Shown here: piece after piece, positions 12,766 through 28,695 of the stretch
Position numbering within the stretch: the stretch's first letter is position 1
Layout: each line of letters begins with the position of its first letter
From: Promethearchaeota archaeon
GTDB taxonomy: Archaea; Asgardarchaeota; Lokiarchaeia; Sigyniarchaeales; SOKP01
Direction: 5' to 3'
DNA: 29,203 nucleotides
NCBI GenBank assembly: GCA_048939015.1
Contig: JBHLPW010000057.1
Coordinates: 1 to 29,203, forward strand
Made by a program: the position numbers and the translations under genes
Notes under the pieces: generated by a model
The model's input: only the letters and a program-made list of their open reading frames with translations
The model's database searches: none
What the model was told of the DNA's origin: nothing

Positions 12766-13311
12766 ATGATCATCGAGAGTCCATTTAATGGTAAAATTCC
12801 AAAGATTCACCCAACAGCTTTTATTGCCCCGGATGTTGTTATAATTGGGGATGTTGAAATAGGTGCTTATACTAATATTTGGTTCGGTGCAAAACTACGC
12901 GGAGATTGGGGAAAAATTATTGTTGGTAATTATACCAGCATTCAAGACAATGCGGTTTTACATTCCAGACCTAACAAATCATGTAAAATAGGCAATAATG
13001 TCAGACTTGCACATTCATGCATGGTTCATGGTTCATGTGTTATAGGGGATTATTCATTGGTGGGAATTAGTGCATCTGTTCTTCATGGTGCTGAACTAGG
13101 AATCGGTAGTGTTTTAGCTGGGGGCTCTGTTCTACGTGATAAAGCTGGAGACTTTTGTTTATACGCGGGTATACCTGCAGTAAAAAAGAAAGAATATTCA
13201 AATAAGCGATTGGATGAATTTAGTACTAAACTTTATGCGGATAATGGTCAAAAATTTAAAAATGCAGGATATGGACAAAAAATCCCGAAAGAATATCTTA
13301 TAAAGGAATAA
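12766..13311 (+). CDS. Gamma carbonic anhydrase-family (left-handed beta-helix) protein
   Basis: PKIHPTAFIAP, IGDVEIG, LRGD, IQDNAVLH, AHSCMVHG (three His ligands present). Confidence 0.92.
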   Translation: MIIESPFNGKIPKIHPTAFIAPDVVIIGDVEIGAYTNIWFGAKLRGDWGKIIVGNYTSIQDNAVLHSRPNKSCKIGNNVRLAHSCMVHGSCVIGDYSLVGISASVLHGAELGIGSVLAGGSVLRDKAGDFCLYAGIPAVKKKEYSNKRLDEFSTKLYADNGQKFKNAGYGQKIPKEYLIKE

Positions 13312-13317
13312 CATGGA

Positions 13318-13902
13318 TTATAAGATTTTATCATAGTCTAATCCATGAGAATCAAGGATTTTTTCAGTCATTTCTTTGAAGGCATAGAGAATATTTATAT
13401 TTTCTTTTGAGGAAGTTTTAACATAATCTTTTTCATTGTGATTACTAAGAAATTGTTGTATAATTAATTCATCAACTTTTTGCTTTCCCTTATTACTTTG
13501 AATTAAATCAAGTTTAGTTCCAATTAGAATTTTCGGTCGATCATGAAGATTATGTGCTTTTATCTGATCATACCACCAATCCAATCGAGTTAATGTCTCC
13601 ATACTTACTAATTCAAAAACTAAAAATATACCATCTGCTCCATCAATATAATACTTAAACAACTTTTTGAATTGTTCCTGCCCGCCAAAGTCCCAGATCG
13701 TATGCCTTACAAACGTCTCCTCTCCAGATACTATGATTGGGATGTCGTGTGTGTAAAAATCTATTCCTATAGTCATTTGAGTATTTGCATCAAAAGTATC
13801 AAAACATAACCTTCGAGCAATACAAGTCTTTCCTACTCCACCAGATCCGATTAAAACAAGCTTAAAAATATAAGTTGGACTTTCTTCTTGATGGAATGTC
13901 AT
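13318..13902 (-). CDS. Rab-like small GTPase
   Basis: GSGGVGKT, TIGIDF, WDFGGQEQF, YYIDGA, GTKLD, TSSK. Confidence 0.92.
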   Translation of the reverse strand: MTFHQEESPTYIFKLVLIGSGGVGKTCIARRLCFDTFDANTQMTIGIDFYTHDIPIIVSGEETFVRHTIWDFGGQEQFKKLFKYYIDGADGIFLVFELVSMETLTRLDWWYDQIKAHNLHDRPKILIGTKLDLIQSNKGKQKVDELIIQQFLSNHNEKDYVKTSSKENINILYAFKEMTEKILDSHGLDYDKIL

Positions 13903-14038
13903 GATTATCCTATGTGTATATTTTTGATTAAATTTTTCTTGTAGCTTTTAGAATATTTATGAATATTTCTACTTAATACAATAAAAAAAAATCTATTATT
14001 TAATTTTAGTACAAAATATTAAAAATTTGAAAAGAATT

Positions 14039-14641
14039 CTAAAAAACTCTCCTTGTAAAAACTTCTTTATTTTCTTCAATATCAAATTCATGAAATACCA
14101 ATATTTCTTTGGCCATTTCTTTAAAAATATTTTGAATATTGATGTTATCTTTAGAGGAAGTTTTGGTATAACTTTTCACAGCATATCTTTCAATTGAATC
14201 ATTTATTAGTGATTCATCTAAAATAAAAGGATTATCCGTTTGATCTATTAAATCAAACTTAGACCCAACGAGAATTATCGGACGATCTGCAAAATTAAAT
14301 TCAACTAATTTATCATACCAAAAGTCTAAATTTACTAAACTCTCTATTTGTGTTAAATCAAATACTAAAAAGATCCCATTTGCACCATTTATATAGTAAC
14401 GGAAAAGTGGTTGAAAGCGTTCTTGACCGCCAAAATCCCAGATTGATAATCTAATCTTAGTATCTATACCATTAATTGTAAAGGGAAAATCATAAGTATA
14501 AAAATCAATCCCAACAGTAAGTTGAGTATTTAAACTAAAGGTATCAAAACACAGTCTTCGAACCATGCAAGTTTTCCCTACACCCCCGCTACCTATGAGA
14601 CAGACCTTAAAGATATATTTATACTCGTCTTCTTTCGTCAT
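14039..14641 (-). CDS. Rab-like small GTPase (tandem paralog)
   Basis: GSGGVGKT, TVGIDF, WDFGGQERF, YYINGA, GSKFD, TSSK. Confidence 0.92.
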   Translation of the reverse strand: MTKEDEYKYIFKVCLIGSGGVGKTCMVRRLCFDTFSLNTQLTVGIDFYTYDFPFTINGIDTKIRLSIWDFGGQERFQPLFRYYINGANGIFLVFDLTQIESLVNLDFWYDKLVEFNFADRPIILVGSKFDLIDQTDNPFILDESLINDSIERYAVKSYTKTSSKDNINIQNIFKEMAKEILVFHEFDIEENKEVFTRRVF

Positions 14642-14821: not shown

Positions 14822-15886
14822 TTACGTCTGAGACAATAATTCTATTAATGCTCTTGGTATCTCATTATAATCATTAACCGCATAAAATTTTCCACGTCCA
14901 GCCTTTGCAATTTCGCGACATGTATTTATGCCCTGATCAGCATCATTTTCAGAGGGCATCCCTATAACATGTAAAGTGGGAAATTTTTTTGCTAATGCGA
15001 CAGGGTTATCACCCCGATTATAATTGCCATCAGTTATTAATATCCCAAATCGACTTTTTCTTTTTTCTTTTATTTTACTTAACTCTTTTAATCCTTTTTC
15101 TAAACCAATATAAATATTTGTAAACCCAACTGCTTCAGAGTCTAAAATATCATCAATAATAGAAACGATTGGTCTTTTCTGCTCAATTTTTTTCATGACC
15201 ATTGCAGTTGAATTGAAGAGGACAATGGCAAAATCCTCCCTTTCCATATTATACGCTAAAACTGAGGCTGTAAGAGCGGCGTTAAGTAATAACCGTCCGT
15301 ACATACTACCACTTGTATCTAAAACCAATACTACTTTTCTTTTTTGACGTTTTCTTTCAATTCCATATATATCTTGATAATTAAGACTTTTTTCATAAAT
15401 TTTTAAGGGATTATGCTGGATTGTTTCATCCATACTAAACTCAGGCATTCCCATTTGATAATAGGGGACCGTTTTTTTGAACTGTCCCCTAATTCCCTTA
15501 CTAGTAATTTTCAAAGATAATTTTAAAATACTTTGACGAGCTAAACGTCGAAAAATAGACTTATATTTTTCAGAAATAGGACGTCTTATAAAAAAATAGA
15601 CCTCTGGCATAAAATCTCCCGTTTCAGCAGCTCTTTCTGAGAAGAATTGTACTCCTTCTTCTGTATCTAAAGCATCAACACTAGCGTAGATATTTGCTTT
15701 AAGTAATCCCATGAGGGCTTCAAGATTTTTATGTTTTATCGCAAGATATGTCAATTCTTTAATTTGTTTGTAATCTAGAGTATTAGCTAGGTGTTTATAA
15801 TAATCTGGTTTTTTTCTTTTTTTTCTGATAATTTCATATTCTAATATTTCCTTATCCGGACGGCTCTCTGTAAGCCTTACATGCAA
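14822..15886 (-). CDS. von Willebrand factor A domain protein (CoxE/ChlD C-terminal-like); frame open upstream to 15970, true start uncertain
   Basis: MIDAS LDTSGSM ... GFTNI ... ITDG; adjacent to a MoxR ATPase; no in-frame ATG near the 5' end. Confidence 0.88.
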   Translation of the reverse strand: MHVRLTESRPDKEILEYEIIRKKRKKPDYYKHLANTLDYKQIKELTYLAIKHKNLEALMGLLKANIYASVDALDTEEGVQFFSERAAETGDFMPEVYFFIRRPISEKYKSIFRRLARQSILKLSLKITSKGIRGQFKKTVPYYQMGMPEFSMDETIQHNPLKIYEKSLNYQDIYGIERKRQKRKVVLVLDTSGSMYGRLLLNAALTASVLAYNMEREDFAIVLFNSTAMVMKKIEQKRPIVSIIDDILDSEAVGFTNIYIGLEKGLKELSKIKEKRKSRFGILITDGNYNRGDNPVALAKKFPTLHVIGMPSENDADQGINTCREIAKAGRGKFYAVNDYNEIPRALIELLSQT

Positions 15887-15902
15887 TCTTTTCTCAATCT
15901 CT

Positions 15903-15955
15903 TCGGATTCTTCCTCAGAGAAATCATCGATTATTGAAAATCCGATTGATTTAAA
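15903..15955 (-). other. Candidate programmed -1 frameshift signal (slippery heptamers + stem-loop)
   Basis: U_UUA_AAU (15955-15949) and G_GAU_UUU (15943-15937) lie in the MoxR frame; inverted repeat TCGGATT/AATCCGA at 15903-15909 and 15939-15945. Confidence 0.5.
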
Positions 15956-16803
15956 ACAGCTAAAACAATATTAGTAATTACTTCTTTTTTGGATTGAGTT
16001 AATCCATCTTCTAATTCAATTTTGTTATATAATGCCATTACAGATGCTTCAATCCAATTTTTTGAACTATTATTGTTGTCATATTGATTAATCAATGTTG
16101 CTAGGTCTATGGCACCTCTGATTGAACTCCCTCTTCTAATGGATGTATTTTCCCGTGTTATTTGTATTATATTTTGAGAGATTTTTGCAATCTTATCTTG
16201 ATTTCCTTTATTCAAATTTGCTTCTTGTTTAATTATTAGGATCTCTTCATCAGGAGTTTGATAATCCAACTTAACCCAAATAAAACGATCCTTTAATGCT
16301 TCCCCAAGAACAGTTACTCCTACGTGTGCAGCTGGATTCTGAGTAGCCACAACAAAAAAATCTTTATGAGCATTTATTGTTTTCAATTTAGGGATTTTAA
16401 GAATTCCTTCATCTAATGATGTTAATAATGAATTTTGAGTACTTTCTGGCATTCTATTTATTTCATTTATGAATAAACATCCACCATTCATCATAGCTAA
16501 AGCTAATGGACCATATTTATATGAATCCTCTGTATACCCTTGTGAAATTACGAGAGGTGGTTCAAAATAACCGACAAGATTATGAGGTAATAATTCTTCG
16601 CTGCAATCTACTCGATAGAAATCAGAATCGAAAAAAGAAGCTATTGCTCTAGCCAAAGTTGTTTTCCCAACGCCAACTTCACCTTCGATTAATATATTCT
16701 TACCCACTGAATGAGCCAAAACAACTTGTCTTAATTCTTCGGTCCTACCTACTATTTTATATTTCTCTTGTATTTCTTTTACTTTTTCGGTTGTATCAAC
16801 CAT
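15931..16803 (-). CDS. moxR: MoxR-family AAA+ ATPase (CoxD-like)
   Basis: IVGR, Walker A GEVGVGKT, Walker B variant LFINEINR, TQNSLL, ATQNP, EALKDRF, SIRGAI. Confidence 0.9.
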   Translation of the reverse strand: MVDTTEKVKEIQEKYKIVGRTEELRQVVLAHSVGKNILIEGEVGVGKTTLARAIASFFDSDFYRVDCSEELLPHNLVGYFEPPLVISQGYTEDSYKYGPLALAMMNGGCLFINEINRMPESTQNSLLTSLDEGILKIPKLKTINAHKDFFVVATQNPAAHVGVTVLGEALKDRFIWVKLDYQTPDEEILIIKQEANLNKGNQDKIAKISQNIIQITRENTSIRRGSSIRGAIDLATLINQYDNNNSSKNWIEASVMALYNKIELEDGLTQSKKEVITNIVLAVLNQSDFQ

Positions 16804-16876: not shown

Positions 16877-17794
16877 TTAATCATTAGAAATATTAGGTTG
16901 TTCTTCCTTTAATTGCAGTATTATAACATTATCGCTTCGCTTCCATAATCTAAATGAAATTAAACCAATAGAGATTAGAAGGAGGGGGTATATTATTATT
17001 TCTAATAAAGAAGGATTCGCATTATATCCAAATAAAGCTTTTAATAGGGATCCTGTGACTTCAAGCCATTCTGGAGTTGCTAAATTGCCATCAGGAAAGG
17101 ATTCGGGAAGAATGTGTTTAATATTCCACAACTCTTGTATGATCGGATTTACAACTCCAGCTTCGATAAGTTCATGAATTCCATATGTAATGAGCCCAGT
17201 AGCAAACAAGATTAGAATCACATTTGTAATTTTAAAGAATTTTGAGATGTTAATTGCCCGAATTCCATAAAAAGTCAAAAAACCAATTATTATCGATAAT
17301 CCTAGGCCAATTAATGACCCCCATATAATTGTACTTTGGTTTATTGAACCTACTGAAGCAGAACCCGTTAATAGAAGAATTAATTCTATACCCTCACGGA
17401 TTATAATTATAAATGTTAGAATTGAAATTGAAAATACTTTTTGGGTGTTAATCGATCCCTCAACCTTTTCTTCTAGATATACCCTCATTTTTGGACCTTC
17501 TTTACTTACCCATAAGATCAAGGTTATTATAAAAATACCTGAGATTATAAATGTAAAACCTTCAAATAGTTGTTCTAAAAGCCCAGAAAACCCACCATAT
17601 ACTACAGAAAAAATAATAGCAAAGAATATACTTATGAGTATTGCGAGAATAGCGCCTATGTATACATATTTATTGTATTTTCTTTGATTAGTCTTTCTTA
17701 AATATAATAATATTATCACGACGACTAATGTTGCTTCCAACCCTTCTCTAAATGCTAAAAATGCTGGTGTTATTAAATCTATTAATGTTGCCAC
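16877..17794 (-). CDS. FTR1-family high-affinity iron permease
   Basis: Two RExLE-type motifs (REGLE, REGIE), HELIEAG, LFGY; GTG start. Confidence 0.92.
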   Translation of the reverse strand: MATLIDLITPAFLAFREGLEATLVVVIILLYLRKTNQRKYNKYVYIGAILAILISIFFAIIFSVVYGGFSGLLEQLFEGFTFIISGIFIITLILWVSKEGPKMRVYLEEKVEGSINTQKVFSISILTFIIIIREGIELILLLTGSASVGSINQSTIIWGSLIGLGLSIIIGFLTFYGIRAINISKFFKITNVILILFATGLITYGIHELIEAGVVNPIIQELWNIKHILPESFPDGNLATPEWLEVTGSLLKALFGYNANPSLLEIIIYPLLLISIGLISFRLWKRSDNVIILQLKEEQPNISND

Positions 17795-17992: not shown

Positions 17993-18559
17993 TTAGTCTT
18001 CTTTATTAACTAAGTAGAAAAGTTTACTCAATTCAGGAATAATTATATGTTGAATAGCGAGTGTTACTGCGTCTAGAGAACTTGGAAGCAATATTATGAC
18101 TTTCCCCTTTTTTTTAATTCGTAAAATACCCGCATTTGCTCTATATAACATAGCTGGAGTACCAATTTCATTATATGAAAGAGATCTAAACAGTTCTCCA
18201 AATCCCTCGATCACTTTTTCAAATCGAGGCACGATAGTTTCAAATGTAATCTCCTTTTCTGAGTATCCCATACCACCGCTAAAGATTATCGAATCAATTT
18301 TGTCATCTTTCATTAAATCTACTAACACTTTATTTATATGGTCCTCTGAGTCTGTTATAATTTGAGAAAAAGCTAATTTAATTGATTGATCATTAATAAG
18401 TAGCCTCTCTACTTTAGGGATAATTTTATCTGTACTTTTCTTTTTCGATTTCAACTCATGATATTGATTAGTGTTTACTACAATTAATGCTAAATTTATT
18501 TTAGGAGCCTTTTTTTTTTGATCGTTAGATATTTGTGATTTTTTTATCATTTTTATCAA
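17993..18559 (-). CDS. moaB: MoaB/MogA-family (molybdopterin adenylyltransferase fold) protein with degenerate motifs
   Basis: IEGFGELFRSLSYNEIG..AML.RA.AG is the MoaB signature. GGTG>GGMG, RDVT>KEIT, SRA>YRA, PGS>PSS. Confidence 0.8.
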   Translation of the reverse strand: MIKMIKKSQISNDQKKKAPKINLALIVVNTNQYHELKSKKKSTDKIIPKVERLLINDQSIKLAFSQIITDSEDHINKVLVDLMKDDKIDSIIFSGGMGYSEKEITFETIVPRFEKVIEGFGELFRSLSYNEIGTPAMLYRANAGILRIKKKGKVIILLPSSLDAVTLAIQHIIIPELSKLFYLVNKED

Positions 18560-18728
18560 ATAATTTTATGCTTAAAACTATATCATTTATTTTTAAAGAA
18601 ATTTTACGTGTCTAAGTTAGAAATGTTCAATTATAATTAATTAATTTTCAATAGACCATTTTTAATGAATTTATCATTATTGTCTAATTTTCTCATAAAG
18701 GTAGTTTTTGATTAGGAATTCATTCATT

Positions 18729-19007
18729 TTAACCTCCTGAAACTGGTAATAAGAAGGTTATGGTATCATTATGATTTAAGTTAATTAATGCGGGATTTTT
18801 CTCATGGATTGCTTGGTTATTTATTATAATCGATATTAAGTTATGTATTTTTTGATTTTTTTCATCCCAAATTAAATCCCTTAAATTGTACTTTTCAAAT
18901 AATATATTTAGTAATCCCTCTAAAGTGGACTCGACTAAATTAAATTCTTCTCTTTCTTTACCGGTTATTTCTTTAAATTCTGCGAAATATATAACATGTA
19001 TAATCAT
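18729..19007 (-). CDS. moaD: MoaD/ThiS/SAMP ubiquitin-like sulfur carrier
   Basis: VIYFAEFKEITG N-terminus; C-terminal LPVSGG. Confidence 0.88.
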   Translation of the reverse strand: MIIHVIYFAEFKEITGKEREEFNLVESTLEGLLNILFEKYNLRDLIWDEKNQKIHNLISIIINNQAIHEKNPALINLNHNDTITFLLPVSGG

Positions 19008-19034
19008 TTTTAAGAAAATTATAGGGTTGCCAAT

Positions 19035-20084
19035 TTAGTAAAAATAAAGCCATCTAATAAATGTTAATAAAAACCCTAAAATGACCGTTGCCATAAATAA
19101 ATAAAAAGAAGTTAAATTCCATTTATAATGCCATGTTTTTTTATTTTGGTCTCTCTTTCTTGATTTCTTAAAGCCTGTAATAGCACCAGGGATGATAAGC
19201 AACATTGAAATTAAAGCAGTGAGGCCATGAACAGTATAAAAAATGGCACCCCTGTTTAAGATTGTAGATATGACCCAATAGAAAAAAGTACCGAGAGAAG
19301 TGAGAAAGTATCCAACACCGACTGCAATGTGAAATTTTCGATTCATAAATTTGGGTAATTCACGATAAAATTCTGTGATTGGCGACCTTTTTAGCCCTGA
19401 CATAAGAGCAACACCACCTAAGATAAAAGAAATTGCCAATAATTCAGCATGTAAAAACCAATCTGTAAATGGTGTACGATAGGCATTATCACTCCAACCA
19501 CGACTCTCCCAATAACCTATATAGTCATAATTTACAATCTCTATCCTAACAACCCATTTCACCCATTTATAACCCAAATGGTCTGGAGCTACAACCCTCA
19601 CTGGAAACCCTTGTTCAATTGGTAAAGGCTCACCATTCATTTCATAAGCTAGTAGGATATTATCCACACTTGCTTCTTCAATAGTTAATGATGATGAATA
19701 ATCATCAGCAGCGTAAAACACAACATCTATAGCTCCAGGCTGTACTTTTGCTTGTTCTAATAATTCTTTAACAGGTACACCTTTCCATAAAGCAGTTCCA
19801 GAAGGTCCATCAACACATTGTAGTGTCGCAAGAACTTCTTTTGATGGTAGAGAAGTAAAGTTTGAATAAGAATAAGTTAGGCTATTGTTGATATGTCCCA
19901 CAATCTTCATATTCCAATTATTAACAGAGATAATAGGAGTCTCTCCCTTCGATACTACAAAGAACTCATCATTAGGAGTTATTACATATCTACTAAGAAA
20001 AATACCTAATATTCCAAATAGGGGGAGACATAATATGATCAAAATTCCAATGTATTTTAAATAGGTTTTTCTTTTTCTGTCCAT
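19035..20084 (-). CDS. Sulfite oxidase/MsrP-like molybdopterin oxidoreductase fused to a 4-TM cytochrome b561-like domain
   Basis: TPNDEFF, TLQCV (Mo-ligand Cys), WKGV, AYEMNGEPLP.EQGFPVR, GYKWVKW, GYWESRGW; then TM helices with four His (LHAEL, FHIAV, VHGLT, WHYKW). Confidence 0.88.
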   Translation of the reverse strand: MDRKRKTYLKYIGILIILCLPLFGILGIFLSRYVITPNDEFFVVSKGETPIISVNNWNMKIVGHINNSLTYSYSNFTSLPSKEVLATLQCVDGPSGTALWKGVPVKELLEQAKVQPGAIDVVFYAADDYSSSLTIEEASVDNILLAYEMNGEPLPIEQGFPVRVVAPDHLGYKWVKWVVRIEIVNYDYIGYWESRGWSDNAYRTPFTDWFLHAELLAISFILGGVALMSGLKRSPITEFYRELPKFMNRKFHIAVGVGYFLTSLGTFFYWVISTILNRGAIFYTVHGLTALISMLLIIPGAITGFKKSRKRDQNKKTWHYKWNLTSFYLFMATVILGFLLTFIRWLYFY

Positions 20085-20212
20085 GAGAATTATTTTTAAT
20101 ATAAAATCTGCTAAATTTTTTAAGTAAAAAAGGAAGAATGGTACCCGTTTTATTACATCATTTAGGATTTCATCATTTTAAAAGTTCCTTGCTATTAATT
20201 ATAAGAGACTAT

Positions 20213-21091
20213 TTAAAATATTGATAAAAATAAATGGTATAGTGAAGGTAGTTTAGGAATTGGGAGAATTTGAAATAGAAATATCAGTAAAAAAGAAAAT
20301 CCTAATAAGCATAAAATAATAAACACCCCATCAATAGACCTAAATTTTATAATCTTTAAATTGGTTCTTTTCTTATGAGCGCCAAAACAACGATTTTCCA
20401 TTGATATTGAAGTTATATGACCTTTTCTAAGGATTGAAATTAGAGTTGCCACTAATCTTTCAAAAATTAACCTATATGCTTTTTTTATAGAGTTTGCTTT
20501 TTCAAGTCCAAATCCTCTTGCTCTTTGAGCTAAAGCTATTGTTTTAGCTTCTTGTTCGATTAATGGAATGTATCTTATTCCCACCATCAATGAAAAACAG
20601 TACCTATATGGAATTTTTATTCTTATAAGTGAGTATAGAAAGTCCTTTGGGGATGTACTATTAGAAAAAATAATTGTAGAAGTAAACAATATAAGAACAA
20701 TTAATGACGCTTTAAGTGCATAATATAGAGCCAATCTTCTTACAGGTAGAAAAGGAGCATTAAAAATATAAAACAAAACTGTTTCTTGATTACTTGGAAT
20801 TGCATTAAAGAAGATATTCAAGATTACACTTATAATAAGGATAAATATGATGAATTTTAGTTTCCTTAATAAATCTCTAAGAGATATTTTACTAATTAAG
20901 GTCAATAAAATAATCAGGATAAATATTATAGTTAATAAAATTAAACTTCTAATCATAAAGATGGAAATTGTTAACAAAATTAAAAAAAAGATCTTAGAAA
21001 GAGGATTCAATTTGTGCATTAATGATTTTCCAGGTAAATAGGCAAATGTGTAAAATCTATGATCTAAAACCCTATTTTTATTTTTTCTCAT
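20213..21091 (-). CDS. ecfT: ECF transporter transmembrane component T
   Basis: S.MHKLNPLSK, RYIP, AQRARG and SMENRCF (two conserved Arg motifs). Confidence 0.92.
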   Translation of the reverse strand: MRKNKNRVLDHRFYTFAYLPGKSLMHKLNPLSKIFFLILLTISIFMIRSLILLTIIFILIILLTLISKISLRDLLRKLKFIIFILIISVILNIFFNAIPSNQETVLFYIFNAPFLPVRRLALYYALKASLIVLILFTSTIIFSNSTSPKDFLYSLIRIKIPYRYCFSLMVGIRYIPLIEQEAKTIALAQRARGFGLEKANSIKKAYRLIFERLVATLISILRKGHITSISMENRCFGAHKKRTNLKIIKFRSIDGVFIILCLLGFSFLLIFLFQILPIPKLPSLYHLFLSIF

Positions 21092-22898
21092 TATTTCCTA
21101 ATTCTAATTGATATTTAATTCTCTCTAATAAAATAATAGGACCCAAATTTCTATGTTTCTGAAAATAATTATGACTCATGTCATAATCTCGAAGAGTACC
21201 ATCTCTATTTAATTCAATAATTCTTTTGGTATATTTTAGGAGTAGATGATAATCATGTGAAGATATTATTATAGTCTTTCCTCTTTTGTTCTCAATATAA
21301 AGGGTCTCAATTAAGGAATCAATAGTCTTTTGGTCTTGACCTATAAAAGGTTCATCTAATAAAATAATCTCAGGATTATAAATGAATATAGAACTTAAGT
21401 TTAATCTACGTTTCTGCCCCCAACTAAGATGAAATGGATTTTTTTCTGGATCTTCTTTTCCAATTAAGTTTAATAATTTAGTGATATAAGAATCACTAAG
21501 TTCATTTTTTAAACCAAAATTTTTTGGTCCATATAATAATTCTTCTCTAAGAGTTGGTCTAAAAATCATATTCTCTGGGTTTTGAAAAATAAATCCTATC
21601 TTTTTGGCATATTCATACTGACTTATTTGACTTATATTCTTATTATTATAATAAATCTCTCCTGAAGTAGGTTCATATAAGTTTGCGAGTAGATACAATA
21701 GTGTTGTCTTTCCTGAACCATTAGGACCAACTAGTCCGATAAAATCTCCCTTGTGTATTTCCAAATTCAAGTTTTTCAATGCTATAATTCCACTATTTGG
21801 ATATTTAAATGTAAGATCTCTTGTTTCTAACACCCAATCATGTTTAACTGATTTAGCTATATCATCCCTTTCTTTCAATTCTTTTAGAGATTTTATATAA
21901 ACATCCTTGAATTCTATTAATTCTTCGAACTTTTCATATTTCTGCAATTCTATAGGTTTAATTTCCTTATCAATTACAATTTTATGTAATCTATTCAGTT
22001 CTTCTTTATTTAATTGACTAATAAAGTCTAATAATTCTTGAAAATCAGAGGGATAGTTGACTTTTTCTTTAGAATTTCTGAATTTTTGAAACCCATAAAA
22101 GATATCGATTATCCATGGAACCCGTATATTGTTTTTTCGCAAATCATCAAAATTTTGGGTAACTAGCTTTTTAATATCTCCGTTTATTGAGATATTTCCT
22201 AAATCATTTAAAATAACTAATTTATCTGCAATATCCATAACTCTAGATAATCTGTGTTCAATAATCACTAAAGTTATTGGAAAAGTTTTTGATTGAATAA
22301 GATATTTCAATCTATTTAATAAAAAGCTCTCTGATTGTTGATCTAAGAAAGCAATTGGTTCATCAAGGATTAATAACTTCGGATTCATAGCTAAAAAAGA
22401 GCTTAAAATAACGAGTTGCTTTTGCCCTCCACTTAGTTGATCGATATCTCGATTTAGTAGGTGATCAATGCCCATCAATTTAGAAACGCTATTTACTCTT
22501 TCCTTAATAATTTCAGATGATAAATTTAAATTTTCTAGACCAAAAGCAATCTCATCTTTTACATTGAAAGTTATTAACTGATCATTAGGATTCTGTTTGA
22601 CTAGTCCAACTAATTGAGATAATTCTGAAAAATTATAATCCCAAATGCTTTTACTAAATATTTTAACGTCTCCTTTTACTAATCCCTTCTGACGCCATGG
22701 AATAATCCCATTCATAGCATAAGACAGCGTTGACTTTCCACTTCCACTAGGACCAGCTAAGACTAAAACTTCTCCCTCATTTAATTTAAAAGTGATATCA
22801 GAAACCACAGGCTTTACATTTTTATTATCTCCATATATAAAAGAGAAATTTTCGAAAGCTAAGGCTATTTTATTATTAGAATTAAAGTACAACACCAC
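21078..22898 (-). CDS. ECF transporter fused duplicated ATPase (EcfA-A')
   Basis: Two ABC domains: GPSGSGKS/LSGGQKQ/ILDEP and GPNGSGKT/LSWGQKR/LLDEP; QNP motifs. Confidence 0.92.
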   Translation of the reverse strand: MVLYFNSNNKIALAFENFSFIYGDNKNVKPVVSDITFKLNEGEVLVLAGPSGSGKSTLSYAMNGIIPWRQKGLVKGDVKIFSKSIWDYNFSELSQLVGLVKQNPNDQLITFNVKDEIAFGLENLNLSSEIIKERVNSVSKLMGIDHLLNRDIDQLSGGQKQLVILSSFLAMNPKLLILDEPIAFLDQQSESFLLNRLKYLIQSKTFPITLVIIEHRLSRVMDIADKLVILNDLGNISINGDIKKLVTQNFDDLRKNNIRVPWIIDIFYGFQKFRNSKEKVNYPSDFQELLDFISQLNKEELNRLHKIVIDKEIKPIELQKYEKFEELIEFKDVYIKSLKELKERDDIAKSVKHDWVLETRDLTFKYPNSGIIALKNLNLEIHKGDFIGLVGPNGSGKTTLLYLLANLYEPTSGEIYYNNKNISQISQYEYAKKIGFIFQNPENMIFRPTLREELLYGPKNFGLKNELSDSYITKLLNLIGKEDPEKNPFHLSWGQKRRLNLSSIFIYNPEIILLDEPFIGQDQKTIDSLIETLYIENKRGKTIIISSHDYHLLLKYTKRIIELNRDGTLRDYDMSHNYFQKHRNLGPIILLERIKYQLELGNNEKK

Positions 22899-22899
22899 T

Positions 22900-23526
22900 C
22901 TAGAAGGTTGTTGGAACTCCAGCTTTAATTAAATAATTTTTAGTTGTCCGACCTAGTAAACCGGTGATCAATATTCCTGATATAAAAGCAAATATGAATG
23001 CTAAAACCCATAATACCCAATGTAAATACCATCGTTGATTAATAATCCAGAAAAAAGGAGCTTGAAAAAAGTTCCCAAATCCACCTGCAATACCCCATCC
23101 AAGTTTAGTTTCACCTTCCCCAATCCTTTCCATTAACATAAAACCAATTATTAAGAAGAAACCTTCCATTAAATTTACCAGAATGATTAGTAAACCCCAT
23201 GGATCACCAAGTAAAAACTCAAGTACTCCCTTAGTAATCATTGTTAACATTATAGTTGGCTTTTTCCGAGTTAGCCCATAAACAATAGTTGCCCAAATTA
23301 CATGGTGCCCACTCACTAACTGAGTACCACCAGTTAAAGGGTACCATATTTTTATTAGTAAAGAAAATGGGATTAAACTAGAGATGATTCCACCCATTAC
23401 TCCTATTATTGTTGAATACAGAAGATCAAGGAGAGTTAATCTTTTAGTTTTTTCCTGTAAATACCCTGATGGTTTAAATTCATCTTTAGAATCGGAATTT
23501 ATTTCATCAATATTTTCTAATTTCAT
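22900..23526 (-). CDS. ECF transporter substrate-specific S component (YkoE-like)
   Basis: ~6 TM; LTLLDLL, RKK......KGVLEFLLGDPWG...EG pattern; directly upstream of the ECF ATPase and T genes. Confidence 0.82.
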   Translation of the reverse strand: MKLENIDEINSDSKDEFKPSGYLQEKTKRLTLLDLLYSTIIGVMGGIISSLIPFSLLIKIWYPLTGGTQLVSGHHVIWATIVYGLTRKKPTIMLTMITKGVLEFLLGDPWGLLIILVNLMEGFFLIIGFMLMERIGEGETKLGWGIAGGFGNFFQAPFFWIINQRWYLHWVLWVLAFIFAFISGILITGLLGRTTKNYLIKAGVPTTF

Positions 23527-23539
23527 GTTTATTGATTTT

Positions 23540-24103
23540 TTATTGAATTATTATTGTTTTCAGATATTTTATAGCATAATGTGTATTTGCTTTATCAGGA
23601 ATTAATTCATGATCAACAATACTTCTGAGTGGTCCATCAAAATATATAGGATCTCCATCTTTTTCATAAGCAATGATTACTTGGTCTGAATTATTTTCTG
23701 CCATTGCCAAGGGAAGTGAAGTTTCAGCCCAATACCCATCTCCTCCTACAAAAAGAAAACTTGAGGCATCTTCATTCAAAATATTTTCTTCTTCAAGGAT
23801 ACTCCATAATGATGTACCAGAATATATTTCATCAAATTCTCTCCCAATTGCATTTAAAAAGTGAAAGTTTTTATCTAATATTTGATCATATTTATCAGAT
23901 TTAAGATCTGCCACAGATAATTGTAGTTCTCTATTAACATTTCCTTTAATAGTAAGAACTTTTGTATTTTCTCCCCCAAATGTGGTTTTAATGTGATAAA
24001 AGGGATCTATATCTAGTAAAATAAACGCATACAGACTTAACCAAAAGACTGATATCCCTATTAATATCCCTGAAACCATTATATAGAAATTTCTTTTTTC
24101 CAT
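23540..24103 (-). CDS. Membrane-anchored protein with an oxidoreductase molybdopterin-binding-like domain, no Cys
   Basis: N-terminal TM; LTIKGNV..ELQLSVADL, YSGTSLWSIL, F.GGDGY, IIAYEKDGDPI..DGPLR, IKYLKTIII align with the 19035 Moco domain. Confidence 0.75.
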   Translation of the reverse strand: MEKRNFYIMVSGILIGISVFWLSLYAFILLDIDPFYHIKTTFGGENTKVLTIKGNVNRELQLSVADLKSDKYDQILDKNFHFLNAIGREFDEIYSGTSLWSILEEENILNEDASSFLFVGGDGYWAETSLPLAMAENNSDQVIIAYEKDGDPIYFDGPLRSIVDHELIPDKANTHYAIKYLKTIIIQ

Positions 24104-24111
24104 TCTATTGG

Positions 24112-25011
24112 TTAACTTCTCTTTAATGTATATTCAATTTTAATACTCATAAGAATTAATGCAAATACTGAAAAAAACAAAATAATAAATATATCATAAG
24201 CAGGTACTACTGTAGAAGATTCAGGAAATTTTATTTCTAGTGCATGCGTCCAAGATATTAGGTGATCTTCGTGCTGTGCATCATTCATAATTCCCATATT
24301 AAATTTATAAATTCCAGATTGGTCAACTTGGATATCATAAGGATCATTTGTTGTTAATTCTCGTTTAATTTCAAGTGTGTATGAAACATTTGTCCTATAG
24401 GTATAAGCAATTTCTACATCTTCTGTTTCTAAATTTGGGTCATACCAACCATAAGTACCAAAACATTTATCCCGACAGTAGTATGATGAACCATTAATTG
24501 GAGATAATGATAAACATGACCAATCCCAACTATCAACATCACCGCCTCCCATATCCAGTGTACTCATTCCACTTGTAAAATATGCTGAAAAATTTGGAAC
24601 GTTAATATTCCAGCAAAAATATAGTCCATCATAGACACTAGCACCTAGATCTGGTCTTGTTGAATTATCAAACCACTTACATAATATAAAAAGATAAGTA
24701 TCTGTTATTACAAATGTTATATTTAGGTATATTACCTGAAAATTCGGACCATAAGATTCTGATGCTAATGGTATTATTAATGATCCATTTTCATTATCAC
24801 TTGTATGTTCTTTCCAAAAATTTTCATTTGGAAGACCATCCAAGTTGATAGACGCAGATCTTTCATAAAAAGGAATGATCTTTGTAACATTATGATAATC
24901 TTTACAATCTCCTTCAGGAGGAAAAGCATTAGCTGACGGAAATGTAATATTTATTATTACTAAGAGTGAAAAAGTAAGTGTAGATAATCTTAAGATGTTT
25001 CGATATTTCAT
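24112..25011 (-). CDS. Exported DOMON/ethylbenzene-dehydrogenase-gamma-like putative heme-binding protein with C-terminal anchor
   Basis: Signal peptide (SANA/F); INLDG...E.FW, LFILCKW.D, DGLYFCW, GM, VDSWDW, YTLEIKRELTTND..DIQ, H.IS; C-terminal VPAY + TM + basic tail. Confidence 0.65.
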   Translation of the reverse strand: MKYRNILRLSTLTFSLLVIINITFPSANAFPPEGDCKDYHNVTKIIPFYERSASINLDGLPNENFWKEHTSDNENGSLIIPLASESYGPNFQVIYLNITFVITDTYLFILCKWFDNSTRPDLGASVYDGLYFCWNINVPNFSAYFTSGMSTLDMGGGDVDSWDWSCLSLSPINGSSYYCRDKCFGTYGWYDPNLETEDVEIAYTYRTNVSYTLEIKRELTTNDPYDIQVDQSGIYKFNMGIMNDAQHEDHLISWTHALEIKFPESSTVVPAYDIFIILFFSVFALILMSIKIEYTLKRS

Positions 25012-25073
25012 TTTTATTCATTATTACTGATTTTTAGTTTAGTAAAATTTAAAAAAAAATAAATTGATTTTGT

Positions 25074-26291
25074 TTATAGGTAAAATCCTGATGGAATTGA
25101 GCCTGTATATGAAGTAATTTCTATACTTACGACATGTGATAGATAAGTATTTCTTGGCCTCCCTGGAATTAATATATAAAATGGTCCTCTATGATACCCG
25201 CATATACGTCTATATGGCCAAATTGGATCGGTAATTCCTTGTCCTGACTCGCCTAATTCTTGATCGGCATAGACTAAAGCCATCAAAAGATCAGATTCAG
25301 GCATTGGAACTAAAGTCTCATTAATTAAATCCGCAGTTGTATTTAGATAACCATTAGCCCATTGGGGATAAGGAGGTGTAATCCCTTTTTCTATGTCTGT
25401 ATTAGTATATCTAGGTTCTTTTTTCCCACCGAATGGCCATGGAGTAGCCCATTCATCAGCTGACCAAAATCTAACGGTGTAATTCAAACCAGCAGCTGAT
25501 GTATGAGAGATAATTTCCGAAATGTTTCTTGCCCAATAGTGTCTATGGAAATCCCACCAATCATCTCTGTCGTAATTATATTCATCATCATATTCATTTA
25601 ATTTCATATTTGTAGGATCAATGGTGTATTCTACAGTGCCATTTACAACTACCTCAACAGTCCAATTACTCATCACCTCAACTTGAGAGAGATCATATAT
25701 TGCTGATGGAAATTGTTTTCCAATGAATGAAAAATTACCCCAATTTGGACCTAATGGAGATTCCCCTAGCCATTTTTTATTTGCAGCAATAGCTACAATA
25801 ATTGGGTCTTCGTCCCCATGATACATTCTTGAAATAATGTCACCAGTTGTTAATTCTAATGTATGACCATAACTGGATGTAATAGTTAAATCCCAACCAA
25901 AATTAGTATCATATTTTTCTAAAATATCTAATAAGTCTACCCCAGTTATATAAAGTCCAGTTCCAGGATCAAGAAATGTGTAAGGATATATGATATCTTT
26001 ATACTCATTAATCTCTGGTCCTCCTGCTGCTTGTTCTTCTAAAGCCAAGGCAACCCCATCTAGTATATCTTTCAAAGTTACTTTTATAGATGCTCCAGTT
26101 TGATTGTAAAGCATAAAATAAGATGCATTTGGTGCAGTACTCCAGTCATCTGGAAGACCAAATAGATCTGTAGGTCCTTCTGAAGGTGGACCAAATATTT
26201 CAGGTCCAGCAATAAATAAATAACCTAGTCCACCTGATACACCAACAATACCTATTAATAAAACACCGATAATAATATCTTTTTTATCCAT
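25074..26291 (-). CDS. Membrane-anchored surface protein, probably two degenerate molybdopterin-binding-like domains
   Basis: N-terminal TM. Repeat 1: TGVDLLDIL...TSSYG...IIVAIAAN...GNF...LSQVEV. Repeat 2: YWARNISEII...FWSADEW...LVY...GPFYILIPG....YLSHVVSIEI. Confidence 0.6.
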   Translation of the reverse strand: MDKKDIIIGVLLIGIVGVSGGLGYLFIAGPEIFGPPSEGPTDLFGLPDDWSTAPNASYFMLYNQTGASIKVTLKDILDGVALALEEQAAGGPEINEYKDIIYPYTFLDPGTGLYITGVDLLDILEKYDTNFGWDLTITSSYGHTLELTTGDIISRMYHGDEDPIIVAIAANKKWLGESPLGPNWGNFSFIGKQFPSAIYDLSQVEVMSNWTVEVVVNGTVEYTIDPTNMKLNEYDDEYNYDRDDWWDFHRHYWARNISEIISHTSAAGLNYTVRFWSADEWATPWPFGGKKEPRYTNTDIEKGITPPYPQWANGYLNTTADLINETLVPMPESDLLMALVYADQELGESGQGITDPIWPYRRICGYHRGPFYILIPGRPRNTYLSHVVSIEITSYTGSIPSGFYL

Positions 26292-26337
26292 TTTTATCAG
26301 ATTTTCTATTTATTTCATCTTTTTTTTGGTTAAATGT

Positions 26338-26361
26338 CGATAGGTCTATATGAACATATCG
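26338..26361. promoter_or_regulatory. ModE-like 24-bp imperfect palindrome upstream of the Moco/ECF cluster
   Basis: CGATAGGT-CTATATGA-ACATATCG; same CG-to-CG length as CGnTATATA-N6-TATATAnCG. Candidate minus-strand TATA (TTTTTAAAA, 26394-26386) lies just upstream. Confidence 0.6.
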
Positions 26362-26479: not shown

Positions 26480-27259
26480 CTATCGTTTACTCCATTTCCA
26501 AGCGTAATCTATAACATCCTGTCGACAAGTAGAAACACAGCTACCACAGAGAATGCAATCGGGATCATACATATTACCTGATTGAACTAGCTCATTAACA
26601 TCCAGTCCCATTTCACATGCTTTTGAACATTGTTTACAGTTCGTACATTTTTCTACATCAGCTTCTAAGTGTAATGAAGGATATTTGAGAATATTCTTTA
26701 GTTTTGTTCCAAGAACTCCTAACACACCCATTGGGCATGCATAATTACAAAAGGATCTCTTTCCACCTATAATTGTAAATAAAATTACGACTGATCCGAG
26801 AATTCCAAGATAGAAAATCAGCAATCCAATCTCGAATTCGTTCCATGAAATAATTCCAGTTGGATCTTCAGGAGTTGGATAATATGGGTTAAATCCGTAT
26901 TGATATCCTAAATTTAATATTGGTCCTAATGCAACAAAGACAATCCAGATGATAAATACAATGTATTTGATCTTCCTTCTCTTCTGTTTTTTTGCTGGAT
27001 CTAATTTTTTAGGAATCACATCACCAAAAACTTCTTGAGCAGCACCCCATTGACAACCATAAGCACAGAAAGCTCTTCCGAAAAAGAGGGATGAAATGAA
27101 CCATACGGTAAAGATAACAAAACTCATGCTAATATACCCCTCAAAACCACCCATAATAATAAGAACGGGTGACATCCAATTAAAGGTTATGGGCAATAGA
27201 ATAACCCATAAAAACATTAAGAGTTTTCTGAATTTGAATAATTTTTTATATTGTCCCAT
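26480..27259 (-). CDS. NapH/MauN-like membrane polyferredoxin (4Fe-4S binding protein)
   Basis: GRAFCAYGCQWG, RSFCNYACPMG, CTNCKQCSKAC, CILCGSCVSTC; TM segments. Confidence 0.9.
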   Translation of the reverse strand: MGQYKKLFKFRKLLMFLWVILLPITFNWMSPVLIIMGGFEGYISMSFVIFTVWFISSLFFGRAFCAYGCQWGAAQEVFGDVIPKKLDPAKKQKRRKIKYIVFIIWIVFVALGPILNLGYQYGFNPYYPTPEDPTGIISWNEFEIGLLIFYLGILGSVVILFTIIGGKRSFCNYACPMGVLGVLGTKLKNILKYPSLHLEADVEKCTNCKQCSKACEMGLDVNELVQSGNMYDPDCILCGSCVSTCRQDVIDYAWKWSKR

Positions 27260-27272
27260 AAAAGATCCCTCT

Positions 27273-27767
27273 TCAATTATTTATTTTCTGAATTATCTCT
27301 TTTGCCCATTCTTTTGCTTTTTCTTTAGCGTTTTCAGGTGCATTCTGTTTTGGTTCTTGAAAGCGAATTTCCCCAACGATATTAGCATCTTTTAAAGCAT
27401 GCTTGAACCGGTCCATTGCTTTTACACCATTTCCTTGAGCACAAACCCAAAGAGCTATATTCTTATTAGAAAGATCATATTTCTTTAAGAATGAACGAAT
27501 GGGTGGAGAGAATGTCCAAGCCCATACAGGAGTTCCTAATATAACTAAATCATAGTCGAGAGGATTAATATCAAATTCTCCTAATTTGGGTTTTTTCTTC
27601 ATTGTAGCCTGAAAGCCACCCCAAAAATATTTCATCCCACTTTCAGCATCAAGCTCTTTCACAGGCTTCAACTCTAACACATCGGAATTAATTGCTTCAG
27701 CAATTGTTTCTGCAATCATTTTCGTGTTTCCTGTGAGAGAATAATAAACAAGTAAAACTTTTCCCAT
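27273..27767 (-). CDS. Flavodoxin
   Basis: YYSLTGNT, YDLVILGTPVWA..SPP; SD GAGGT upstream. Confidence 0.92.
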   Translation of the reverse strand: MGKVLLVYYSLTGNTKMIAETIAEAINSDVLELKPVKELDAESGMKYFWGGFQATMKKKPKLGEFDINPLDYDLVILGTPVWAWTFSPPIRSFLKKYDLSNKNIALWVCAQGNGVKAMDRFKHALKDANIVGEIRFQEPKQNAPENAKEKAKEWAKEIIQKINN

Positions 27768-27785
27768 TTTTTTATACCTCTTTCT

Positions 27786-28457
27786 TTAATTTTCCCTTGG
27801 ACTTAATCCTTCTCCAAGAATTTCAAATACAAAATCTACAACCTCATCTGAATTCAATCCAAGTCTGTCAATAAAATTCTTATTTTGCATTAAATCATTT
27901 ACTAGTCCATTTGTTAAGGTTGAAAGTACATATCCAATTAAGAAAGGATTCTTGTCTGATCGGATTGCTTTAATTTTTACAGCATCAGTAAGTATCTTAA
28001 TAAAAATATCTCTAAAACTATTACTTAAATCAAGATATTTCTTCTCAATTTCTGTTAATACTTCTTCAGGTTTGATTGAGATATCAGGTAATTTTAAGGC
28101 AATATCATGAAAAATATTGGCATAAAGAGGATGATCTTTGGTAAAGGCATAGTAAGCATAACCAACTGCCATAATTTGTTTCATACCCGGATCCTCTTTC
28201 TCTGTAAATTCTCTGGTGTATTTAATTATCAGTTCATATGCCTTGATCCCATTCGCAATATATAATTCATCCTTAGAGATAAAATATTTATATACTGTTC
28301 CTTTGCTAAATTCTGCTTCATTAGCTATTTCATCCATTGTCGTGGCTTCATATCCATCAGATAAAAACAATTTTTCTGCGGCTTCAAGGATGATCTGCTT
28401 TCGTAATTGTGTTTCTCTTTCCTTTCTAGTCATTTTTTCTTTTTTTTTACTTTCCAT
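27786..28457 (-). CDS. TetR/AcrR-family transcriptional regulator (start revised to ATG 28457)
   Basis: ILEAAEKLF..GYEATTMDEIA.EAEFSKGTVYKYF.SKDEL; AGGTG (28469-28465) 7 nt before the ATG of MESKKK. Confidence 0.92.
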   Translation of the reverse strand: MESKKKEKMTRKERETQLRKQIILEAAEKLFLSDGYEATTMDEIANEAEFSKGTVYKYFISKDELYIANGIKAYELIIKYTREFTEKEDPGMKQIMAVGYAYYAFTKDHPLYANIFHDIALKLPDISIKPEEVLTEIEKKYLDLSNSFRDIFIKILTDAVKIKAIRSDKNPFLIGYVLSTLTNGLVNDLMQNKNFIDRLGLNSDEVVDFVFEILGEGLSPREN

Positions 28458-28479
28458 TAATAAACACCTTATTCTTTGT

Positions 28480-28496
28480 AATGACTTGGAGTCATT
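28480..28496. promoter_or_regulatory. Putative TetR autoregulatory operator (perfect 7-3-7 palindrome)
   Basis: AATGACT-TGG-AGTCATT, 22 nt upstream of the revised start; degenerate copy AATGACT-ATT-GGTCGAA at 28560-28576. Confidence 0.65.
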
Positions 28497-28695
28497 TTTT
28501 ATACCAAGGGTTATTAATATATTAAAGATTATTTTCATATTTAAACTTTTTGTTCAAAAAATGACTATTGGTCGAATGCACTGTATAGACCCATAAAGCC
28601 CTATAAGTAGAATTGAATTAAATATAATTAGCTAGAATGATATTAAAAACATTCTAGCATAATTATATCATTTATGAATATTGGTTGAAGAATTG

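Follow-up and report, generated by a model that had tools for sequence, protein, structure and literature searches.

The window analyzed here is a stretch of 29,203 nucleotides from a Lokiarchaeia genome that is 94.9% complete. It contains nine co-oriented genes, all on the minus strand, preceded by a ModE-like operator palindrome of the CGWTATGT-N8-ACATAWCG type (26338-26361, no strand assigned) that lies 47 bp upstream of the first gene. The first six genes encode a predicted anchored, outward-facing protein of 405 aa with one N-terminal TM and no Pfam hit (25074-26291), a DOMON/EbdC-like surface protein (24112-25011), an anchored single-domain Cys-less sulfite-oxidase-fold protein (23540-24103, PF00174 E 2e-8), an ECF S component of the YkoE family (22900-23526, PF09819), a fused ECF ATPase A-A' (21078-22898, TIGR04520 and TIGR04521 above cut-off), and an ECF T component (CbiQ; 20213-21091, PF02361 E 2e-25). 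These are followed by a sulfite-oxidase-family enzyme with a 4-TM b561-like part (MsrP-b561; 19035-20084, PF00174 E 9e-41, Cys90), a MoaD/SAMP-like protein that ends in GG (18729-19007, TIGR01687), and a degenerate MoaB (17993-18559) in which GGTG is changed to GGMG. A comparison of 20 loci revealed that the conserved unit, hereafter the module, runs from 25074 to the T component (six genes), and that only in one genus is it followed by MsrP-b561, moaD, and moaB. An Rfam search of the locus gave no match and no TPP riboswitch, and a sigma-70 promoter scan performed no better than chance. An MK-D1 RNA run mapped to its locus gave flat depth over genes and spacers and was hence uninformative on expression.

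The group-I ECF gene set is complete: adjacent genes encode an S component, a T component, and both ATPase domains (PF09819, PF02361, TIGR04520/04521). The assignment as a group-I ECF transporter rests on this gene content, and ATP-driven micronutrient uptake is inferred from sequence alone, without transport data. The only PDB match of the S component is YkoE (5EDL, profile E 3.7e-20). In the profile alignment to 5EDL, the YkoE thiamine ligands Y46, W49, E77, Q95, and D131 correspond to Ser, His, Glu, Glu, and Phe, leaving one of five (the E77 position) intact, and the S component carries a new near-invariant His75 and a common Lys99. It belongs to the YkoE family (PF09819), and its pocket is, by sequence, remodelled. 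S homologues were linked or fused to a Moco fold everywhere examined (Asgard, Anaerolineae), with distant S components in other lineages fused to a Cys-less sulfite-oxidase fold; 23540 matches the domain fused to S elsewhere (hhalign, 98.4%). The predicted complex of S and 23540 scored 0.59, compared to 0.01 for the best control, with runs agreeing in at least 93% of contacts and a partner pLDDT of at least 86. Among reference pairs, 58 of 80 solved and 2 of 110 mismatched ones attained such a mark. It should be noted that scores of 0.60 or lower are wrong more often than right unless the pairing is likely beforehand, and we treat this model prediction as weak support only.

The fold of 23540 superimposes on SorA with a Z of 17.0 (rmsd 1.9 over 132 residues) and on PruR with a Z of 16. 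The protein contains no Cys residues, and its Asn84 is kept in 26 of 29 homologues. For 25074 (AF2 pLDDT 89.5; homologue present in 17 of 20 loci), residues 52-209 gave a Z of 13.7 to PruR, and the best Foldseek/VIA matches were PruR and sulfite dehydrogenases. The second domain (residues ~210-400) has only moderate support (hhalign 69.7%, E 4e-5) and was not folded alone. An ESM Atlas shape search with 25074 returned only matches with a TM of 0.40 or lower, all of them in PF00174 clusters. The sole Cys of 25074, Cys364, falls outside the conserved columns, and the Mo-ligating Cys is missing from both proteins. Based on sequence and predicted structure, and without binding data, we infer that 25074, in which one sulfite-oxidase/PruR-fold domain is confirmed and a second is probable, is a candidate cofactor receptor and that 23540 is a candidate receptor that would pass the cofactor to S. 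TM and charge predict that both are located outside the membrane. The protein encoded between them, 24112, has a homologue in 13 of 20 loci, conserved Met and His residues in the alignment, EB_dh neighbours in the Atlas, and Pfam DOMON/EB_dh matches below cut-off. It was not folded; from sequence alone, it likely binds heme b and has an accessory role.

MsrP-b561 retains Cys90, lacks an RR motif, and scores far below the NF003767 cut-off. It occurs in four same-genus loci only and is also found beside tupA in another genome (G048), and we infer that it is a cofactor client, accessory to rather than at the core of the transporter system. No TatC was found in the genome, which encodes two anchored sulfite-oxidase enzymes that have the Cys but no RR signal. 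The moaD gene shares 76-79% DNA identity with moaD inside the intact operons of relatives, and MoaB carries GGMG in 5/5 copies from pathway-less genomes and GGTG in 14/14 from intact operons. Between moaD and moaB, a moaE/moeA scar is supported by a suggestive ATG and a short likeness only, with no BLAST hit. We infer that moaD and the degenerate moaB are remnants of a deleted moa operon and not transporter parts.

An initial annotation, made from the sequence before these comparisons, can be assessed at this point. The gene order and orientation it gave held and were refined to the six-gene unit, and its ModE-like box held as the top genome-wide site (below). Its description of 23540 as a Cys-less Moco-fold protein held, and that of 25074 as a two-domain Moco-fold protein held in part, with the N-terminal domain confirmed and the second moderately supported; absence of the Moco-binding fold from these proteins would have refuted it, and structure comparison found the fold in both (in 25074, residues 52-209). 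The linkage of homologues to the Moco fold held wherever examined, in a survey without Firmicutes and methanogens. Its observation of MoaD and a degenerate MoaB in the gene row was correct, but their membership of the transporter system is rejected.

The operator connects the module to metal uptake. Using a matrix trained solely on 10 tupA upstream sites from relatives, the box at 26338-26361 ranked first of 4.86 million genome positions, and the second-best site lies before an AOR gene. The operator is upstream of the module in 21/21 loci, MK-D1 included, and one palindrome, which we take to resemble the E. coli ModE consensus, is common to the module and the Mo/W uptake genes (tupA) of relatives. 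A short ModE-like HTH protein was found in 5/5 genomes, scoring below the TIGR00637 cut-off.

The source genome encodes about twenty enzymes needing a W/Mo-pterin cofactor, among them 17 of the AOR family with mostly intact motifs. MoaA, MoaC, MoaE, and MoeA were not detected in it, also by tblastn with Lokiarchaeia queries, nor were TupA, ModA, or WtpA. Two weak PF13531 matches were considered as ModA/WtpA and rejected as a PstS-like and an unrelated binding protein. ThiC is present and unlinked to the module. Two closed genomes, those of the cultured Promethearchaeum syntrophicum MK-D1 and of Ca. Harpocratesius repetitus, contain the module together with 7 and 6 AORs, respectively, and none of moaA/C/E, moeA, or tupA. 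A survey of MobA gave only weak below-cut-off matches in both genome types and was uninformative on import of a nucleotide form.

The same pattern was observed across 151 Lokiarchaeia genomes, all with AOR (AOR content was established for this class only): 51 have S only, 71 synthesis only, 10 both, and 19 neither, 15 of the latter being less than 90% complete. Among the 61 genomes that are at least 95% complete, 25 have the transporter only, 33 MoeA only, 2 both, and 1 neither, and all keep AORs. TupA was found in 0/51 S-only Lokiarchaeia and was not found in 8/10 with both systems. Four weak S matches (G040, G091, G116, and G130; E 1e-14 to 1e-20, separated from the rest by a gap) were set aside. 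All four genomes have MoaC; counting them changes the overlap from 10/61 to 14/65 and leaves the picture unchanged. In 126 other Asgard genomes, 50 have the transporter S, 54 have MoaC, and none has both. Within the Anaerolineae, MoaC is missing in 8/13 S-positive genomes compared to 13/168 others, and MoeA is kept in 4/5 carriers tested. As a control, ThiC is absent from 8/61 S-positive and 11/90 other Lokiarchaeia, which shows no trend. It should be noted that the genomes are related by descent and Fisher p-values overstate the association. The same chromosomal flanks hold either tupABC-moaCADE-moeA-moaB-moeA or the module, and the two states interleave on the flanking-gene tree with 6 changes. 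The joint loss of tupABC and moa/moe counts as one event because the genes share one operon. No conserved candidate pathway genes accompany the module, other lineages have surface phosphatases of two unrelated folds within the operon, and an APH-like kinase tracks the module in one Asgard family.

Taken together, the parts, their folds, the loss of synthesis and tungstate uptake, the exchange at one locus, and the common operator are shown by the genomic data. Since synthesis is missing and an import pump occupies its slot, the finished cofactor is probably taken from neighbours, and the module is likely a dedicated importer of finished, metal-loaded W/Mo-pyranopterin cofactor, with binding and transport inferred. 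The anchored Cys-less folds, incapable of catalysis, would bind and shield cofactor from partner or lysed cells, and the 23540 domain would hand it to the S component. As in other ECFs, A-A'/T would topple S and release the cofactor inside, where it would allow AOR, formate-dehydrogenase-type, and sulfite-oxidase-family enzymes to run without endogenous synthesis. The ModE-like repressor would turn the operon off when metal or cofactor is abundant. More speculatively, the heme protein may adjust the redox state so that the cofactor can be extracted, and Tat-less surface Mo enzymes may also receive cofactor directly from the surface carriers. The initial annotation had proposed that Cys-less Moco-fold receptors and an ECF module move Moco/Wco or a precursor; this is supported at the genomic level, with import favoured over delivery, and homologues track the loss of moaC/moeA in Asgard and Anaerolineae as it had suggested they might.

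Several observations count against this reading. There are no binding or transport data. The closest precedent for a Cys-less fold of this type is PruR, whose ligands are small pterins and probably do not include Moco (PMC13259868). Moco is labile in its free form (PMC7849362), and the bis-pterin W centre required by AORs exceeds what a single sulfite-oxidase site can accommodate, which leaves the transported species undefined; a dephospho but metal-loaded species would be compatible with import of finished cofactor. The substrate may also differ by lineage, given the Anaerolineae carriers that keep MoeA.

Among the alternatives, the module could import tungstate/molybdate in place of TupABC, with the pterin made by an unrecognised non-homologous pathway. 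The module does occupy the tupABC position behind the same operator, and TupA is missing from most genomes with module and moa genes (8/10, above). However, this would require repeated replacement of four unrelated enzymes in both archaea and bacteria, the module is not accompanied by conserved candidate genes, and the receptors have a pterin-binding rather than an oxyanion-binding fold, making this very unlikely. We regard it as equally improbable that a precursor, such as molybdopterin without its metal or its phosphate, is imported and completed inside. The operon phosphatases, the APH-like kinase, the MoeA often kept by Anaerolineae carriers, and the MoaB retained in this genome favour it, but MoaE, MoeA, and TupA are missing too, so that metal insertion in the 51 carriers would proceed without a known enzyme, and MoaB is degenerate and missing from most carriers. 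Export of cofactor to Tat-less surface Mo enzymes is all but ruled out: it has a precedent in the Listeria ECF flavin exporter (EetB/FmnA, PMC9973259) and fits the lack of TatC and the two anchored Cys-bearing enzymes without RR signals, but a synthesis pathway that could feed export is missing from this genome, most carriers, including the MK-D1 locus, have no such enzyme beside the module, and the module is missing from most cofactor-synthesising genomes. A conventional ECF for thiamine/HMP (YkoEDC) or cobalt, located here by chance, with AORs as cofactor-less relics, would fit the YkoE family and the thiamin/HMP database names, but can be practically dismissed given the changes at Y46, W49, Q95, and D131 (thiamine binding would also have refuted the initial annotation), the lack of a TPP riboswitch, the presence of an unlinked ThiC, the intact AOR motifs, and a zero overlap in 126 other Asgard genomes that chance cannot attain.

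The pump itself is of a known kind, group-I ECF, while neither the substrate class nor the receptor architecture is described in the literature searched. YkoEDC, the Bacillus subtilis thiamine/HMP importer (YkoE 5EDL; PMC5037267), has the same S family, a fused A-A', and a dedicated T in one operon; in contrast, the module has sulfite-oxidase-fold receptors beside or fused to S, lies behind a ModE-like operator and not a TPP riboswitch, and tracks Moco rather than thiamine synthesis. PruR (7KP2, 7RKB; PMC13259868) likewise has a truncated sulfite-oxidase fold that lacks the Mo-ligating Cys and lies outside the membrane; it carries a Trp at the Cys site and signals via DcpA. Unlike PruR, 23540 has Asn84/Ala85 near the site, and the proteins here are membrane-anchored and neighbour ECF genes with no DcpA-type partner. 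EetB/FmnA likewise uses ECF parts to move a redox cofactor linked to surface enzymes, but moves flavin out of a cell that has it, whereas the module's cell lacks cofactor synthesis. TupABC/WtpABC/ModABC (PMC6147048) are represented at the same locus, with the same operator, by the tupABC of relatives; the module differs in being ECF and not classical ABC, in lacking an oxyanion-binding protein, and in replacing synthesis genes too. Caenorhabditis elegans and parasitic nematodes (PMC7849362, PMC9026282, PMC7619442) also use the finished cofactor of others, bypassing the whole pathway, but are animals in which the transporter is unknown and no ECF relation has been shown.

According to reviews, a cell that uses Moco must make it itself, apart from the known case of C. 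elegans (PMC9026282, PMC7849362), and a survey left unexplained about 300 prokaryotes that carry 'orphan' molybdoenzymes but lack the pathway (PMC6147048). The initial annotation knew of no characterised ECF system for molybdopterin, and we found no prokaryotic Moco importer, ECF or other, in the literature searched, which covered few subscription papers. For MK-D1, a molybdopterin-dependent FdhA is reported for syntrophic formate transfer, and the listed partner-supplied compounds are B12, biotin, lipoate, and TPP, with Moco not among them (PMC7015854). Import of finished cofactor would add one more partner dependency for MK-D1 and suggest a supplement that possibly aids Asgard cultivation. 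A bolder reading, toward which the balance tips only slightly, is that ~40% of sampled Asgard, MK-D1 included, and some Chloroflexota are neighbour-fed W/Mo-cofactor auxotrophs with a dedicated capture-trim-import machine, in which receptors would strip or catch the cofactor, a phosphatase or the heme protein would condition it, the ECF would import it, and the APH-like kinase would rephosphorylate it. If so, this would be the first Moco transporter identified in any organism and a new syntrophic exchange metabolite. A receptor or transporter that stabilises Moco would be of interest for work on Moco deficiency, and with six genes named, the question of Moco uptake can be put to a direct test in E. 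coli mutants as well as in a cultured archaeon.

The locus consists of nine genes, all on the minus strand, in the order described in the initial annotation. Downstream of a ModE-like operator palindrome (26338-26361) lie a 405-aa protein (25074-26291), a DOMON-like protein (24112-25011), a 187-aa protein (23540-24103), the S, A-A', and T components of an ECF transporter (22900-23526, 21078-22898, and 20213-21091), an MsrP-like/b561 fusion (19035-20084), MoaD (18729-19007), and MoaB (17993-18559). The locus is real and conserved. Its transporter core, a YkoE-family S with fused A-A' and T, meets every testable feature of group-I ECF transporters, and close S homologues carry Promethearchaeota/Lokiarchaeota labels. 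Some genomes encode a second, stand-alone S paralogue (loci L058, L059, L199, and L202; genomes G074, G086, and G138, and family f24). In Promethearchaeum syntrophicum MK-D1, a single 853-aa protein (locus L054:7036-9597) comprises both A-A' and T, and an ORF of similar size occurs in Ca. Harpocratesius repetitus (L055:6903).

Three predicted surface proteins are encoded upstream of the core. By structure comparison, the 187-aa protein, which has zero cysteines, matches PruR with Z 16.0 and the Moco domain of sulfite dehydrogenase with Z 17.0, at rmsd 1.9 over 132 residues for the latter. A Pfam search with the 405-aa protein gave no match; in its model (pLDDT 89.5), residues 52-209 match PruR and sulfite oxidases (Z 13.7; next unrelated fold, 5.7). 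The Moco-fold claim made from sequence alone thus held for these two regions, while the C-terminal half of the 405-aa protein is predicted to be a second copy of the fold, which is probable but not proven. The third protein is DOMON/EbdC-like by below-cut-off Pfam matches, with conserved Met and His. By analogy, the putative Cys-less receptors would act as PruR does, but they are distinct from it.

MoaC, MoaA, MoaE, and MoeA were not found in the window's genome by HMM or by tblastn with a relative's genes, nor were TupA, ModA/WtpA, or TatC found there. The same genome encodes 17 AOR-family genes, the majority with cluster and EYE motifs, several DMSO-reductase-family genes, and two Cys-bearing sulfite-oxidase-family enzymes (19035-20084 and, on contig G000:C46, L032:1126-2133), both anchored and without a twin-arginine signal. 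With no TatC found in the genome, these two may acquire their cofactor extracellularly. From the gene absences in this 94.9%-complete assembly, we infer that the organism is very likely unable to make W/Mo cofactor. The closed genomes of MK-D1 (G105) and Ca. Harpocratesius repetitus (G055) contain the module and AORs, and none of moaA, moaC, moaE, moeA, and tupA was found in them, which removes the objection of incompleteness.

In relatives, the same flanking genes enclose either tupABC-moaC-moaA-moaD-moaE-moeA-moaB-moeA or the six-gene module (20213-26291), and at intermediate loci the module immediately precedes moa genes, with or without tupABC. Genome G053 has the order TetR-flavodoxin-NapH, tup-moa, moxR-vWA-Ras, the window's own flanks; therefore, the window's moaD and moaB are remnants. 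The MoaB motif is GGMG in 5/5 copies from pathway-less genomes versus GGTG in 14/14 from intact operons. Using a matrix trained solely on tupA upstream regions, the window's box was the top-ranked site genome-wide, and a box was found upstream of the module in 21/21 loci. The second-best site (G000:C100:26441) is flanked by an AOR gene on one side and by a divergent 92-aa ORF on the other, and the genome encodes a short ModE-like HTH protein that scores below the TIGR00637 cut-off.

Two flanks are lineage-specific: on the upstream side (26480-28538), genes for TetR, flavodoxin, and a NapH-like ferredoxin, and on the downstream side (16877-17794), the FTR1 iron permease. The clustered small Ras-family GTPase genes (12766-14641) are typical of Asgard archaea. 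A MoxR AAA+/CoxE-like vWA pair (14822-16803, minus strand) lies downstream of the Mo/W locus in synthesis and import states alike across family f1. The pair resembles CoxD/CoxE and may be a cofactor-insertion chaperone or mere synteny.

AORs are present in 151/151 sampled Lokiarchaeia, in which S and MoaC/MoeA are nearly mutually exclusive (S only, 51; synthesis only, 71; both, 10; neither, 19, of which 15 are <90% complete). At ≥95% completeness the counts are 25, 33, 2, and 1. The p-values for this exclusion overstate its significance, as the genomes are related. However, the switch is not a single event, because genera g1, g2, g4, g6, and g14 each contain both states, and the states interleave on the tree of the flanking moxR-vWA genes (six changes, bootstrap 5-7, at least two forced). 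Across 126 genomes from Asgard families other than those of Lokiarchaeia, S occurs in 50, MoaC in 54, and both in 0; in Anaerolineae, MoaC is missing from 8/13 S carriers versus 13/168 non-carriers. The control, ThiC, is distributed independently of S. In Asgard family f10, 17/19 genomes lack both MoaC and a module-type S, and may either have no Mo/W enzymes or use another route.

While the parts, folds, gene loss, locus swap, and operator are shown, binding and transport are inferred without such data. We consider it very likely that the module is a W/Mo-cofactor salvage importer. The outward-facing folds would capture W/Mo-pyranopterin that originates in partners or dead cells, shield it, and hand it over to S for inward transport by the ECF motor. 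Since MoeA and tungstate uptake are also lost, the imported species should probably carry metal; its mono- or bis-pterin form, phosphate/nucleotide state, and release from donor proteins are undefined. Import of a precursor is less likely than that of finished cofactor, the absence of metal insertion (MoeA) and tungstate uptake arguing against it, and a pump for metal only is likewise doubtful. The initial annotation had allowed either import or delivery to the surface; the inward direction is favored, and export is improbable. Thiamine import is equally hard to support, as S, despite its YkoE membership, fails the thiamine tests for that importer.

The transporter kind is already known, but the proposed function is undescribed in the literature searched, where Moco uptake is reported for nematodes only, with the transporter unidentified (PMC7849362, PMC9026282, PMC7619442). 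Around 300 prokaryotes with orphan molybdoenzymes have been left unexplained (PMC6147048), and the MK-D1 paper names other partner-supplied cofactors (PMC7015854).

Most distant S relatives, in Anaerolineae and other Asgard classes, carry one or two Cys-less sulfite-oxidase domains in the same polypeptide, and hhalign pairs this extra domain with the 187-aa protein at 98.4%. A predicted complex of S with the 187-aa protein (0.59 versus 0.01 for the best control) gives only weak support. Operons elsewhere add an APH-like kinase, a surface phosphatase, or a CxxCH heme protein replacing DOMON. The APH/RIO-like kinase adjoins the module in three lineages (G000:C9:4657-5490, L200:4454-5236, and L174:11292-12113), occurs in 28/29 module carriers versus 0/12 MoaC genomes of Asgard family f12, and is a tentative candidate for a dephospho-molybdopterin kinase. 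The phosphatases, found outside Lokiarchaeia, have two unrelated folds, alkaline-phosphatase or calcineurin-like (L084:12476-13642, L193:7378-8928, and L176:13390-14409); one is fused to a sulfite-oxidase-like domain, and they might trim nucleotide or phosphate ahead of import. In an Anaerolineae operon (L077:6011-6940), CxxCH heme motifs are fused to a sulfite-oxidase-like domain, paralleling the window's DOMON protein. The ESM Atlas also contains SLH-anchored, multi-domain PF00174 surface proteins from Bacillota.
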